Shown: positions 16,890 to 21,675, counted from the stretch's first letter. The stretch: 64,000 nt of DNA from Candidatus Aenigmatarchaeota archaeon (GCA_043824495.1 JBDRSV010000010.1:41995-105994); one strand, 5' to 3'. Numbers and translations are program-made. Notes: generated by a model from the sequence alone, not told the origin.

Positions 16890-17726
16890 ATGAAAGAACT
16901 CTTAATACGCTTGGAAAATGAACTAAAATCTCGCGGCTTCAGCAGAAAGACCGTAAAATCCTATTTATTTCACGTTTCAACTTTCTTGCGTCACATATCA
17001 ACAGATTCCACACAAGAAGAGATACAAAGATATTTCATACAATTAGCAGAAAACGCAGATCCCAGAACAGTTAATCTGCGCATAAGCGCAGTTAAATTCT
17101 TTTACAAGAACATCCTACACAGAAACCTCTACATAAACTACATGAAGAGACCCAGAAAAATACCTGAAGTTTTAACTGTACAAGAAGTCATGTATATGAT
17201 ATCGTCCACGACTAACCCAAAACACAGAACTATAATTGAAATGTTATACGGCTGTGGACTCCGGGTATCAGAAATAACTAAAATAAAAAAATCTGACATA
17301 AACATTCCAGAAAGAATAATATTCATAAGACAAGGAAAGGGAATGAAAGACAGAATTGTTCCTCTTCCTCTTACACTAAAAGAGATTGTATATAATTTCA
17401 GTGTAGACGACTGTCCATATGTTTTCCAATCAGAAAGAGGAGGAAAGCTAACGGAAAAAACAATACAGGTGATAGTGAAAAATGCAGCCAAGAAAGCCGA
17501 AATAAAAAAGCGCGTATCTCCACATACTCTCCGTCACAGCTATGCAACCCATCTCCTCGAATCAGGAACAGATATTCGTATAATTCAACGTCTTCTAGGT
17601 CATTCCTCGGTCAAAACCACAGAACTCTATACTCATGTTTCAAGAGCTCTTCTGAAAAACATAAAAAGTCCTCTAGACTTCGTAAAAACATTCAATATAG
17701 AACATTCTAATCCAAACAATGCGTAG
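16890..17726 (+). CDS. Intact tyrosine recombinase (Xer/IntI-related, SAM-like N-domain, no IntI-specific insertion)
   Basis: RGFSRKTVKSY; YGCGLRVSE; GKGMKDR; HTLRHSYATHLLESGTDIRIIQRLLGHSSVKTTELYTH; KSPLD. The full R-K-H-R-H-Y set is present. Confidence 0.95.
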   Translation: MKELLIRLENELKSRGFSRKTVKSYLFHVSTFLRHISTDSTQEEIQRYFIQLAENADPRTVNLRISAVKFFYKNILHRNLYINYMKRPRKIPEVLTVQEVMYMISSTTNPKHRTIIEMLYGCGLRVSEITKIKKSDINIPERIIFIRQGKGMKDRIVPLPLTLKEIVYNFSVDDCPYVFQSERGGKLTEKTIQVIVKNAAKKAEIKKRVSPHTLRHSYATHLLESGTDIRIIQRLLGHSSVKTTELYTHVSRALLKNIKSPLDFVKTFNIEHSNPNNA

Positions 17727-17741
17727 AAACACTAGTTATAA
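17715..17741 (+). other. Putative attI-like primary recombination site (crossover G17735|TTATAA)
   Basis: GTTATAA lies 8 nt after the integrase stop. It starts a repeat also found at the array end and is the exact complement of the first downstream R'' (TTATAAC, 19693). Confidence 0.45.
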
Positions 17742-17798
17742 GAAATCGTTGGTCTTGATTGGTTAAAGGAGATCGCCGCCATTTGGCTTCGCCAAAGA
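17735..17798 (+). repeat. Direct repeat copy 1 (64 bp)
   Basis: GTTATAAGAAATCGTTGG[TCTTGATTGG]TTAAAGGAGATCGCCGCCATTTGGCTTCGCCAAAGA; identical to 21584-21637 except for the bracketed 10 nt. Confidence 0.95.
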
Positions 17799-17929
17799 TA
17801 GCCTGCCTTCGGCAGTATATAGAAAGGGTATTCTTTGTTTTCGAGGACATAGGGAAGTAGTACTCATAAATGGGCATAATAAAGATTAAAAATAACACAA
17901 CACCTATATACTACTAAGGGATTGATAAT

Positions 17930-18851
17930 ATGAATCAAATAGAAATTAATAGAGAAAATCTTGAAAAGAGACTTAAGCAAGTAGGGCTTAGTTCAGATAT
18001 ATACAGCGTCAAACCAAAAAAATTTATTAGAATTAATACGAGACATCCAGTGAAAATAAGAGAATTACAGGAAAGACTTAATAGAAATTATGGAATCGAA
18101 GTAGAATTTATAGAAACATGTATTGAGGAAATTTATGAATCAACAAACTCGGATATTGGAGGGTGGATTAGTGGTAAAAAGAACGAATTCTTTAATAAAA
18201 ATTATTTTATTCAAGATTTAGCAAGCGTTATTTGTGTTAAAGAACTTGATTTAAAAGAGGGTCAATCTCTTCTTGAAACATGTGCAGCGAGAGGTTTCAA
18301 GTCTATTCTGGCTCATGATTTAACACATGGAAAATTAAGAATAACAGCATTAGATATAGATCCTAAAAAAATATCAAATAATGATGGGATTCTTTAAAAA
18401 ATTTGGAATAAATGCAGAAACCCGATTAATGGATTCCACAAAATTTCAAGGTCAAAAATACGATAGAGTACTGGTTGATGCTCCTTGTTCTGGTGAAGGT
18501 GTGACTGTGGTGTATGATGAGAAATTGAGAAGAGATGTTAGTGGATTTGATAATGTTGTGCAATATTCACAAGAAGATGTTGAAAGATTTTCAGAATTAC
18601 AAGGAAAACTTTTACAAAGCGGTTTTGACCACTTAAAGAAGAGTGGAATCCTAAATTACGCCACCTGTACCTTGAATAAGATTGAAAATGAAAGCGTAAT
18701 CCACGAATTTCTTCAAAGAAACGGCGATGCTTCAGTTGTTAACTCTAATATTGATAAATATGGTATCAAGCACAAGGTTTCTAATCTAGGGGTAAGAATC
18801 TTGCCTGGAAAAACTAAGGGCTTTTACTTTACAAAAATTATAAGGAGATAA
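17930..18851 (+). pseudogene. RsmB/NOP2-family m5C methyltransferase split by a +1 frameshift in an A7 run
   Basis: ORF1 has ETCAARGFKS and ALDID; ORF2 has VLVDAPCSGEG and YATCTLNKIENE. Removing one A from 18365-18371 gives DPKKYQIMMGFFKKF and fuses the ORFs. Confidence 0.85.
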
Positions 18852-18883
18852 TCTTCAAAAGAAGACAAAGAATCTATCACCGA

Positions 18884-19216
18884 TTACCTTGTCCTAAAAC
18901 CAAACCTTTTTTCATAATTCTTGTGGTCTAGCCATTCTAGAATAATTGCGATGACTTCAATCTTGTCCCTTCCAAGAGAGTATAATAATCTCCACCCATT
19001 TGGTAAATCATACTTCCAGAGATTGTCTATTCCATATTTCTTGATATATTCCTTTGGAATCAGTTTTTGTTTTATATGAATGAAAGCATTCGGATTCTTC
19101 TCAATTTCCTTAAAGGCGTTGCTTATACTATCATATAACCATTTCTCTCCAGGAGAATCCTTAAGATTGTCATACGCCTTCTTCACATTTTCGTCTGCGA
19201 AAACTAATCGTGTCAT
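18884..19216 (-). CDS. RelE/ParE-like putative toxin
   Basis: LWKYDLPNGWRLLYSL and DHKNYEKRFG; overlaps the upstream gene (ATGA). Confidence 0.7.
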   Translation of the reverse strand: MTRLVFADENVKKAYDNLKDSPGEKWLYDSISNAFKEIEKNPNAFIHIKQKLIPKEYIKKYGIDNLWKYDLPNGWRLLYSLGRDKIEVIAIILEWLDHKNYEKRFGFRTR

Positions 19217-19491
19217 TTAATCAACAGATGTGGTTTACTCATGTACTTCTTTACAAGTTCTGGATTCCAAATCCAAACTACATGTCCTTCTTTGTCTGTG
19301 ACAATCTTACCTGAATCCATAAGGTAATCGAAAACTACACAGAATGTTTGGTACATCATTTTCTTTGGGAGATGTTCCCAAAGCTGCCTTTTCTTGTACT
19401 CTCCACTGTTATTTTTGATAAACTTCTCTACCATAAGTACAGTATCCAACTGTGGATAATGCAAAATTCCTTTCTCCATTAATTGTGGCAT
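19213..19491 (-). CDS. Small wHTH-like putative antitoxin/regulator
   Basis: 92 aa, translationally coupled to the toxin-like gene; preceded by a GGTGA RBS and a palindrome. Confidence 0.55.
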   Translation of the reverse strand: MPQLMEKGILHYPQLDTVLMVEKFIKNNSGEYKKRQLWEHLPKKMMYQTFCVVFDYLMDSGKIVTDKEGHVVWIWNPELVKKYMSKPHLLIK

Positions 19492-19499
19492 AAAATCAC

Positions 19500-19525
19500 C
19501 TTGTTATATATATTTATATAACAAG
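19500..19525. promoter_or_regulatory. Perfect inverted repeat, candidate TA operator
   Basis: CTTGTTATATA-TATT-TATATAACAAG (11-bp arms) directly upstream of the 19491 start. Confidence 0.6.
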
Positions 19526-19801
19526 TATTTATAAAGGTTTCGGTTGAGCCTAAAACATATCATAAGACAAAGAATCTCGTCCGCGGCGGCGATCTCCTTT
19601 ATTAGTTATGTGCACAACGACTCTGCGGCTGCTTCGCAGCCTTGCCTCGCATGGCGAAACCATTTCAGAATAGGAGAAATCCATGCTCGGTCTTATAACA
19701 AGCAGCTTGGCGGTTCGCTGCTGCTCTCCCAAATTCGATCTTTGCTATGAAGGCGGTCTCTTAAAACTAAAACATTTATAAACTGGATACAAATTATTGT
19801 T

Positions 19802-19999
19802 ATGAGCGAATTGAAGATGCATGGAAAACACCAAACTCAATGGGTTACTATATCCCTTGATGAATATGAGAGCATGAAGGCTACTCTCGAGATTTTATCT
19901 AGCCCTAAGGCGATGGAGAAAATTAGACGCGGTGAACAGGAAAGACTAGCTGGAAAGGGGCAGAAACTAGAAGATGTGAAGAAAGAACTTGGAATTTAG
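19802..19999 (+). CDS. Phd/RelB-like antitoxin
   Basis: ISLDEYESMKATLEILSSPKAMEKIRRG pattern. Confidence 0.75.
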   Translation: MSELKMHGKHQTQWVTISLDEYESMKATLEILSSPKAMEKIRRGEQERLAGKGQKLEDVKKELGI

Positions 20000-20250
20000 A
20001 AATCATCTTTATGTAATATAGTATCTATTTGAACTAATTTCTCTTTTTCAATGATTACGTAGATGATTCTCCATCGCTTTTCAAATCTTAATTCCCACTT
20101 TCCCACCAGAGGCCATCTTAGTGGCTTACCATAAATATCTGGATATTCCTTTAACTTTTCAATTTTCTTGAAAAATCGTCTTTGCATTTCTGCATCAAAT
20201 TTCTTCAGATCCTTCTTGGCCTCTGGCATTATCTCGATATCATAACTCAT
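19996..20250 (-). CDS. RelE/StbE-family toxin
   Basis: AKKDLKK...GKPLRWPLVGKWELRFEKRWRIIY. Confidence 0.85.
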   Translation of the reverse strand: MSYDIEIMPEAKKDLKKFDAEMQRRFFKKIEKLKEYPDIYGKPLRWPLVGKWELRFEKRWRIIYVIIEKEKLVQIDTILHKDDF

Positions 20251-20334
20251 GAAATATAATTAAATTCTATACTAATAAATCGGCCGCCCTTTAAAAGACC
20301 GGACTTTGCCAACCTGCTGATGTTAAATAACATA

Positions 20335-20889
20335 TTACTCGGCAGACCGCATTTTGAATTCAGAATCTAAAATACTCATTATCAAATCATTGTAAAACTT
20401 CCCATCTATATAGGCGTTGTCTCTGAGAATCCCATCCACCTTGAAGCCGCATTTTTTATAAGCGGCAATTGCTCTTTTATTGAAATCTAAGACAACTAAG
20501 CTGATTTTATGGAGTTTTAATTGTATAAATCCGAATTTTAGAATGCAATTAATTGCATCGGTTCCATATCCCTTTCCGAAATAGTCTTGAAGAATTCCTA
20601 TTGCTAATCTGACATTTTTATCTTGTTTATTGATTTGATGGAGACGACAACTTCCAATATATTTGTTATCTGATTTTTTGATGATAGCAAATGACAATTC
20701 CGATTTCTGAGCAATTGCCTCTTTGAATCTTTCTTTTACTTTATTTAGTGGGGTAGGTTTCCATTTCTTTGAGCCTCCACACATTATAGTGAATTCTTTG
20801 CTTTCTCTTGTCTTTGCAAAATCTTTGAAATCGGATTCATGTAACTGTCTGATATAAACATTATCCCCATTAATTTTTGGAAGTTTCAT
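20335..20889 (-). CDS. RimJ/RimL-type GNAT N-acetyltransferase (cassette 1, reverse orientation)
   Basis: YIGSC, FGKGYGTDA, NKRAIAAYKKCGF and DGILRD motifs. Confidence 0.9.
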   Translation of the reverse strand: MKLPKINGDNVYIRQLHESDFKDFAKTRESKEFTIMCGGSKKWKPTPLNKVKERFKEAIAQKSELSFAIIKKSDNKYIGSCRLHQINKQDKNVRLAIGILQDYFGKGYGTDAINCILKFGFIQLKLHKISLVVLDFNKRAIAAYKKCGFKVDGILRDNAYIDGKFYNDLIMSILDSEFKMRSAE

Positions 20890-20987
20890 GTATTTTAGTG
20901 GATTTTAGAGGTTATATGATTAACGGTCTGCCTCCGTCATACGCTTCGTCGCTTCGCTCCTCGGTCTCAAACCAAGGTTTTCGACTT

Positions 20988-21070
20988 ATTTAACAGAAGT
21001 TTAAAGGTTCCGCTACGCTGCACCCACATTTTTTCTAAAAGAAAAACGTCTTATAACCCTAACGTTAAGT
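20988..21070 (+). other. attC-like site B (83 bp)
   Basis: R'' ATTTAAC, 5 nt, L'' TTTAAAG, internal hairpin TTTTTCT/AGAAAAA, L' CTTATAA, 7 nt, R' GTTAAGT. Confidence 0.75.
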
Positions 21071-21093
21071 GAAATTGCTACGAGCAAATTTAA

Positions 21094-21528
21094 ATGTCTA
21101 TTCTCTTTACATTAATTATGGTTGATTTTATCAGAAAGAAATCCGAAAAGCCCACATTTTCACAGAAAGGGCTTGATGGATATCAATTTCTTTTAGAAAA
21201 CAAGAATGTAGAAGTATATTTCGTGGACGTGAAAATGGGGCATGATAATTACATTATTAGTAAAAAAATTACTCACATCTATTTTGTTATAGAAGGCGAA
21301 GGATTTTTCGATATAAGCGGAACTAAATTTGATGTTAAACTTGGAGATTTCATAGAAGTTCCGCCAAATAAGGAATATTGTTATTCAGGAAAAATGAAAT
21401 TGTTACTTATCATGAACCCGCCGTGGTTTGAAGGAAACGAAGAGATTACTAAGAAAAATCTTCTGTTGAATAGTTTGCCCTCCGCAACTCTCCCTTCGGT
21501 CGTCACGGATCACTTAACAAAAGATTAA
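21094..21528 (+). CDS. Cupin-domain protein (cassette 2)
   Basis: THIYFVIEGEGFF...GDFIEVPPN; the stop codon falls inside the L'' box of attC site C. Confidence 0.8.
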   Translation: MSILFTLIMVDFIRKKSEKPTFSQKGLDGYQFLLENKNVEVYFVDVKMGHDNYIISKKITHIYFVIEGEGFFDISGTKFDVKLGDFIEVPPNKEYCYSGKMKLLLIMNPPWFEGNEEITKKNLLLNSLPSATLPSVVTDHLTKD

Positions 21529-21590
21529 GACACTCACTACGTTCGTCCTAATTTCCTAAAGGAAACTAGTCTTAACCTCGAATGTTATAA
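21512..21590 (+). other. attC-like site C (79 bp)
   Basis: R'' ACTTAAC, 5 nt, L'' ATTAAGAC, hairpin CTAATTTCCT/AGGAAACTAG, L' GTCTTAAC, 7 nt, R' GTTATAA. Confidence 0.85.
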
Positions 21591-21637
21591 GAAATCGTTG
21601 GTTAAAGGAGATCGCCGCCATTTGGCTTCGCCAAAGA
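21584..21637 (+). repeat. Direct repeat copy 2 (54 bp)
   Basis: Matches 17735-17798 and begins exactly at the GTT of the attC-C R' box. Confidence 0.95.
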
Positions 21638-21675
21638 GGTTTAATATAAATATGAATTAAAACAAAGTTTAATTT

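Follow-up and report, generated by a model that had tools for sequence, protein, structure and literature searches.

The two half-sites at the ends of positions 19693-20328 are best read as one attC-like recombination site (site A), a reading that our data support, and a complete toxin-antitoxin (TA) gene pair lies inside it. The DNA analyzed here (the window, 64 kb in length) comes from a groundwater archaeon whose genome of ~1.0 Mb (35% G+C) comprises 29 contigs. The names under which homologues of the toxin are listed in databases point to the DPANN phylum Aenigmatarchaeota. As an explanation we tentatively propose, at a little below even probability, that 19693-20328 is one folded site of attC type with a selfish TA module at its tip, its recombination being probably slowed and its folding kept. 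The site and its cargo are laid out as follows:

19693-19711, plus strand: left half of site A, i.e., R'' TTATAAC (19693-19699), spacer AAGCA (19700-19704), and L'' GCTTGGC (19705-19711)
19712-19758, plus strand: native left portion of the loop, with the family motif TCTCCCAAATT at 19725-19735
19754-19765, plus strand: left arm of the inner stem, CGGTCTCTTAAA, pairing with 20290-20301 at 11/12 positions
19776-19783, plus strand: TATA-like box TTTATAAA of the antitoxin gene, ~20 nt before its ATG
19802-19999, plus strand: antitoxin ORF, 65 aa, of a short YefM/RelB type
19996-20250, minus strand: toxin ORF, 84 aa, a putative mRNA interferase of the RelE/ParE/YoeB type
20272-20288, minus strand: TATA-like box TTTATTAG and GC box GGCGGCCGA of the toxin gene
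20290-20301, plus strand: right arm of the inner stem, TTTAAAAGACCG, partner of 19754-19765
20308-20328, plus strand: right half of site A, i.e., L' GCCAACC (20308-20314), spacer TGCTGAT (20315-20321), and R' GTTAAAT (20322-20328)

These boxes and spacers, the inner stem, and the 4-bp overlap of the two stop codons had been described in a first-pass annotation of this DNA, and all of them were found where it had placed them, the stem with 11 of 12 pairs in our count. The L boxes GCTTGGC and GCCAACC are complementary at six of seven positions, with one C-C mismatch. R' GTTAAAT matches the consensus GTTRRRY, R'' TTATAAC matches RYYYAAC at 5/7 positions, and the invariant AAC and GTT are both present. 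The spacers of 5 and 7 nt show the same spacing as two further attC-like sites of this locus (sites B and C, below), and this 5/7 arrangement is not the canonical attC register. At 636 bp, site A is ~5 times as long as any described attC site and lies outside the published range of 57-141 bp (PMC5371416).

Neither half of site A has a partner nearby. Within 150 nt to the right of 19711 there is no complement of GCTTGGC followed by GTT, and within 150 nt to the left of 20308 there is no complement of GCCAACC preceded by AAC. The single-site reading of the first-pass annotation is therefore kept, and its alternative of two separate sites was not borne out. We also looked for joined arms: those of the site family do occur joined, in the TA-free site C, but site A's own arms were found joined nowhere. 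A two-cassette parse via GTTATGA at 19798 and TCATAAC at 20241 was rejected, as each word overlaps the start of one of the two coding sequences and neither has L boxes to pair with.

Site A is part of an integron-like cassette array, which contains the following features in addition:

16890-17726, plus strand: tyrosine recombinase (Pfam PF00589 and PF13495), directly upstream of the array
17735-19699: cassette A segment, with a split RsmB-like gene and a two-gene minus-strand pair
20322-20994: segment with a GNAT acetyltransferase
20988-21070, plus strand: site B, attC-like, 83 nt, no cargo (ATTTAAC-AGAAG-TTTAAAG ... CTTATAA-CCCTAAC-GTTAAGT)
21064-21518: segment with a small cupin
21512-21590, plus strand: site C, attC-like, 79 nt, no cargo, homologous to a TA-bearing site in another genome (G027)

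The first site, GTTATAAGA, begins at 17735, 9 nt past the stop codon of the recombinase gene. All array segments (n = 3) open with GTTA.... and close with the exact complement of their opening. Thus, CTTATAAC at 19692-19699 is the exact 8-nt complement of GTTATAAG at 17735, the start of cassette A; GTTAAATA at 20322 is the exact 8-nt complement of TATTTAAC at 20987, the R'' of site B; and GTTAAGTG at 21064 is complementary to CACTTAAC at 21511. Each cassette start is complementary to its own R'' box, an apparent trace of crossover between G and TT. Site B shares the 5/7 spacing of site A, and its L boxes pair at 5/7 positions. From site to site the R and L boxes vary, yet they are complementary within each pair (three R and three L pairs). 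Such pair-specific covariation, as read from the aligned boxes, fits folded attC sites and is unexpected for a recombinase that reads a fixed double-stranded sequence.

We assessed how readily such arms arise by chance. A loose pattern (AAC, 4-6 nt, and a 7-mer, followed by the complementary 7-mer with at most one mismatch, 5-8 nt, and GTT) is expected 0.145 times per shuffled 200-nt flank pair and is, alone, weak evidence. The strict pattern (TAAC, 5 nt, and a 7-mer, followed by the complementary 7-mer, 7 nt, and GTTA, with at most one mismatch) has the geometry of sites B and C; it appeared in 0.115% of 20,000 flank shuffles (p ~0.001) and in 7 of 6,575 window pairs sampled genome-wide, the real site being counted among the 7. 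Scanned across the genome, the strict pattern gave 20 matches, mostly due to chance, and is thus not specific. When the flanks of the gene pair were aligned in inverted orientation, the best score was only z = 1.5, and the inner stem alone was not above chance. Short AT-rich inverted repeats are frequent in this DNA, and the 1.1 kb around site A contains 36 inverted pairs. Because inverted repeats are common here and the flank z is low, the inner stem and the bare argument from inverted ends are each weak when taken alone. Across the window there was no excess of GTT-led 8-mers with a complement within 3 kb (95 observed versus 89.6 +/- 11 in shuffles). The words CTTATAAC/GTTATAAG occur 5 times in the 64-kb window versus ~2.6 expected, and four of the five lie inside the 3.9-kb array, where ~0.16 would be expected.

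It is very improbable, in our judgment, that the arms are a random match flanking an ordinary intergenic TA module. The frequency of the loose pattern, the nonsignificant inner stem, and the abundance of short AT-rich inverted pairs all favor such a coincidence; against it stand the ~0.001 probability of the strict geometry, the independent ties of both R boxes to cassette ends, and a second case of a TA pair within a site (G027), for which a homologous empty site exists.

The first-pass annotation had proposed folding the bottom strand, and when this was run the L boxes did pair. The minus strand of 19688-20333, folded as single-stranded DNA, closes via the arms of site A in both its minimum-energy and its centroid structures, and the inner stem is present in the minimum-energy fold as well as in the fold of the TA-deleted sequence. 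The plus strand favors other pairings. Folding probabilities, i.e., the share of the in silico ensemble that remains when the L boxes are forced to pair, were as follows:

Site A with the TA pair: 0.92 on the minus strand, 0.11 on the plus strand
Site A with 19773-20285 removed: 0.94 on the minus strand, 0.27 on the plus strand
Site A with a shuffled interior: 0.89-0.99 on the minus strand
Site C: 0.39 on the minus strand, 0.29 on the plus strand
Site B: 0.004 on the minus strand, 0.006 on the plus strand

In site A, one strand, the minus strand, is thus predicted to adopt the hairpin preferentially. Sites B and C fold no better than shuffled sequence, so the case for a hairpin rests on covariation and not on energy.

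The recombinase at 16890-17726 passes the cut-off of the NCBIfam model XerA_Arch (225.8 versus 220). With the integron-integrase model TIGR02249 it scores 208.6, below the cut-off of 265, in two matching stretches with a gap between them. By these profiles, the neighbor of the array is a XerA-type enzyme and not a canonical IntI, with no scoring IntI-specific region. The profile result is one of several features in keeping with a hairpin-free reading, which we regard as improbable, namely that the half-sites are double-stranded simple sites of the Xer/dif type, each with two arms around a 5-7 nt spacer and serving the adjacent recombinase, and that the TA pair lies as one module between inversely oriented sites, as in pdif modules or shufflons. 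Each half-site is roughly palindromic (e.g., CTTAAC-AAAAG-ATTAAG), successive sites of the array alternate in orientation, the folding of sites B and C is poor, and a palindromic GGTATAAC-ACCTT-GTTATAAG stands beside a copy of the array's leader on another contig (C4). This reading is made less likely by the pair-specific covariation, the arms differing between sites and staying complementary within each pair (three R and three L pairs here, two and two in G027), and by the native loop sequence between module and arms: in G027 it flanks the TA pair on both sides, so that the pair was not delivered at the arms. Classical attC sites, too, consist of two such simple sites, as reportedly described by Stokes in 1997.

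The toxin matches Pfam PF05016 (ParE_toxin) with 35.4 bits versus a cut-off of 23, and its profile matches the structures of Rv2866 (3g5o_B), RelE (9g12_A), and YoeB (7v5y_E), in line with the RelE assignment made earlier. The antitoxin reaches 20.9 bits with Pfam PF02604 (positions 40-70 of 74), which is below the cut-off of 29.8; its profile matches residues 36-84 of RelB (9g12_C) and residues 45-95 of Rv2865 (3g5o_A). Since the chains matched by antitoxin and toxin are partners within the same crystal entries, the proteins form a cognate pair. The antitoxin match is confined to the C-terminal ~50 residues, and ~35 N-terminal residues are missing relative to YefM/RelB. The protein therefore does not have the full Phd/YefM fold, its N-terminal dimerization and DNA-binding part being absent, and its length of 65 aa is kept across loci. 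As judged from their sequences, both genes are under purifying selection (dN of 0.07-0.3, and of 0.08-0.3 for the antitoxin, with dS saturated).

The two genes are convergent, with stop codons that overlap by 4 bp (19996-19999), and they are likewise convergent and abut at their stops in all ~30 distinct loci of the class in which both genes were found. The premise of the first-pass annotation that TA genes are normally co-transcribed holds in general, but this TA family is convergent in every locus found. It is unusual for a type II TA pair never to be co-transcribed (family loci L018-L062; 19773-20286 in the window). In a genome of the same genus (G001:C39, L023/L051), the toxin gene carries four stop codons and the antitoxin gene is intact; decay of the toxin before the antitoxin is the usual order for a TA pair. 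In addition, ~100 further toxin homologues exist.

Each TA gene has a conserved TATA-like box 20-30 nt ahead of its ATG. The block CATTTATAAAC upstream of the antitoxin ATG is conserved in most homologous loci, and the block TTAATAAATCGGCC beyond the toxin ATG is conserved in many. This arrangement suggests two leaderless transcripts that would meet at their 3' ends. The regions upstream of the two genes mirror each other as inverted repeats (z = 9.6 in G027, 4.6 in L022, and 1.9 in the window), and the repeated part includes a GC box around CGGCCG that lies beside both TATA-like boxes. Because of this inversion, the module seems to have terminal inverted repeats. An attC-like match around the TA pair of L045 was rejected, being in fact the promoter-proximal inverted repeat of the module.

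A second TA-bearing site was found in G027, a genome from another genus of the same family, where the homologous TA pair lies between ACTTAAC-AAAAA-GTTATGA and TCATAAC-TTCGAT-GTTAAGT. Its R boxes (ACTTAAC/GTTAAGT) and L boxes (GTTATGA/TCATAAC) pair perfectly, its folding probability is 0.92, and its arms have the same polarity relative to the antitoxin as those in the window. Both outside and inside these boxes, the G027 sequence aligns with the TA-free site C of the window, left arm with left half and right arm with right half (z = 9.3 and 7.7, respectively; 0/300 shuffles each), and in the joint alignment the G027 module falls at the tip of the small apical stem of site C. The next segment in G027 opens with GTTAAGTCC and closes with GGACTTAAC. 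A loop motif, TCCYAAWTTY, located just before the insert, is common to site A, site C, both G027 sites, and fragments in G019 and G013; in site C and the TA-bearing G027 site it takes the form GTCCTAATTTC.

In a tree of the concatenated TA proteins, the modules of the window and G027 are not sisters, and modules from other contexts lie between them. The window module falls into one group with those of three other families of the class (support of 100/98). This grouping across families, together with the unrelated host contexts, indicates that the TA module moves horizontally. Read most simply, modules have entered or left the same position in this site family more than once.

TA pairs within a site account for 2 of the ~28 distinct contexts of the TA family. 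In five genomes, a TA unit of ~0.55 kb lies between imperfect direct repeats of 36-113 nt (z = 14-61; L020 in G039, L050 in G271, L055 in G020, L058 in G163, and L059 in G033). These repeats copy the end of the neighboring gene, e.g., the 3' end of rpS3Ae in G039, which suggests integration of a circle via recombination at a short copy of the target. These five cases show that the module has at least one means of spreading that is independent of cassette recombination. A broader claim, namely that the module is a transposase-less selfish element that specifically and repeatedly occupies the tips of attC-type hairpins and that the gene-bearing sites are recombination-competent, is one that we regard as doubtful.

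Two further candidates were set aside. The word TTAAA(A/G), considered as a target-site duplication, is within the module at one end and beyond it at the other, and a G022 match to the left arm of site C with two mismatches falls inside a 498-aa ORF. A search of 371 genomes for site-C-like left arms, with three mismatches allowed, gave no more matches than the control. Rfam had no match for the arms of site A or the GC-rich region at 19480-19800, the 64-kb window contains no tRNA genes, and synteny of the array is absent from the same-genus genome G001.

In the explanation that we propose, the module of 0.53-0.56 kb would occupy the variable terminal structure of an attC site. With native loop sequence still present on either side of it, the module would have reached the hairpin tip in some way other than cassette recombination. 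The tip would be a harmless landing place, in which no gene is disrupted, and the inverted promoter ends of the module would lengthen the stem. Whenever R' at 20322 is used, the module would depart together with cassette A, and the loss of the non-replicating circle would leave a stable RelE-type toxin without its antitoxin. Such addiction would stabilize cassette A and its neighbors; stabilization is the accepted role of TA cassettes in chromosomal integrons. A loop of 0.6 kb would reduce the chance that both halves are single-stranded at the same time (PMC5371416), so that the site, together with the excision of cassettes A and B, would probably be slowed; a single-stranded minus strand would still be able to fold. 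Against this explanation, archaeal replication probably exposes long single-stranded stretches only rarely.

The same anatomy might instead mean that the insertion killed the site, a possibility that we rate as rather unlikely. The halves would then be unable to meet in vivo, cassettes A and B would be fused and fixed, and the complementarity would be a remnant that has not yet decayed. Published attC sites end at 141 bp, and large terminal structures in attC sites lead to less recombination (PMC5371416). The L boxes of site A contain a mismatch, cassette A appears old, with an RsmB-like gene broken up into two ORFs, other pairings are favored on the top strand (folding probability of 0.11), and the broken toxin copy in G001 means that such modules decay. 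A dead site is harder to reconcile with G027, which keeps perfect R and L pairing despite its insert, with the arms in the window, whose strength suffices to hold a 600-nt loop closed at equilibrium, and with the inverted promoter ends of the module, which extend the stem.

Several components of the proposed slowed but folding site are already known, i.e., TA cassettes in integrons, archaeal integrons, the long branched attC sites called Vibrio cholerae repeats (VCRs), and insertion sequences and introns that target attC. In sedentary chromosomal integrons, type II TA cassettes (e.g., phd-doc, higBA, and ccdAB of the Vibrio cholerae superintegron) with their own promoters also lie within an array, are likewise often oriented unlike their neighbors, and are thought to stabilize the array through the death of cells that have lost it. 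Their genes, however, are co-transcribed and lie in the cassette body between attC sites of ~125 nt, whereas here they are convergent and lie between L'' and L'. As in site A, the extra length of VCRs belongs to the variable terminal structure, and the fold is closed by the R and L boxes, but VCRs are 120-129 nt long and gene-free (PMC5371416), and site A carries a gene pair.

Archaeal integrons, including those of Aenigmatarchaeota, have been described from metagenome-assembled genomes (MAGs) as arrays of short ORFs split by folded attC-type sites (Ghaly et al. 2022, PMC9668308). TA proteins made up 10.5% of the annotated cassette proteins, and acetyltransferases were also common (PMC9668308). 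Those integrons were found via a size-limited attC model and an IntI with the IntI-specific domain (PMC9668308), whereas the present array has a XerA-type recombinase and one site of 636 nt. As in our case, IS1111-attC elements and group IIC-attC introns (PMC3001079) are foreign DNA of 0.5-2 kb that recurs in or at attC sites in one orientation; they encode a transposase or a reverse transcriptase, whereas the module described here encodes a toxin and an antitoxin only. The pdif modules of Acinetobacter plasmids are likewise small gene modules, often TA pairs, bounded by inversely oriented Xer-type sites. Their sites are conserved double-stranded XerC/XerD sites, in contrast to the arms here, which covary pairwise and are separated from the TA pair by native loop sequence. 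In the literature searched, we found no description of a gene pair housed between the L'' and L' boxes of one attC site.

attC sites are regarded as short recombination signals without genes, and the tools that look for them limit their length to match. If the broader claim of repeatedly occupied, recombination-competent hairpin tips is true, recombination sites themselves carry cargo in DPANN archaea, and length-capped integron detection misses them systematically. An addiction module within the site would physically link post-segregational killing to the recombination site and would mean that the cassette arrays of small-genome archaea are under-called, and a TA-bearing site could lock or slow the adjoining cassettes. 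The filled site of G027 and the homologous empty site C in the genome of the window constitute a usable test pair.

Some further observations concern the contents and surroundings of the array. In cassette A, an RsmB/F-type methyltransferase gene (17930-18851, plus strand) is split into two overlapping ORFs of 155 and 156 aa and is probably a frameshifted pseudogene. Two further ORFs at 18884-19491 (minus strand; 92 aa, then 110 aa, with a 4-nt overlap) resemble a second, co-directional TA operon, the C-terminus of the 110-aa product being RelE/ParE-like; neither ORF has a Pfam or NCBIfam match at threshold. A related 5.6-kb contig from the same sample matches 17695-17750 joined to 21542-21599 (with 7 and 2 differences, respectively), with 752 other letters between 17750 and 21542. 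This contig is from a strain or species with different array contents, and the contents of the array therefore vary between strains.

A leader of ~60-100 nt that starts with GTTATAAGA occurs in three copies (17735-17830, 21584-21640, and contig C4:29600-29695) and carries a 17-mer, TAAAGGAGATCGCCGCC, and a hairpin, TTTGGC-TTC-GCCAAA. The copies at 17735-17830 and 21584-21640 form direct repeats that bracket the whole 3.85-kb array. The C4 copy is 96% identical and follows the palindromic, dif-like GGTATAAC-ACCTT-GTTATAAG, with no recombinase gene nearby. The whole array may sit in an att or dif-like site. In addition, 19566-19734 is a GC-rich assembly unitig of 169 nt that has small hairpins with TTC(G) loops and ends at the loop motif; within it lie site A's left arm and an inverted 17-mer copy, GGCGGCGATCTCCTTTA. 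Its depth is ~2 times that of its neighbors and it has different flanks on both sides, which indicates that a second identical copy is present in the sample.
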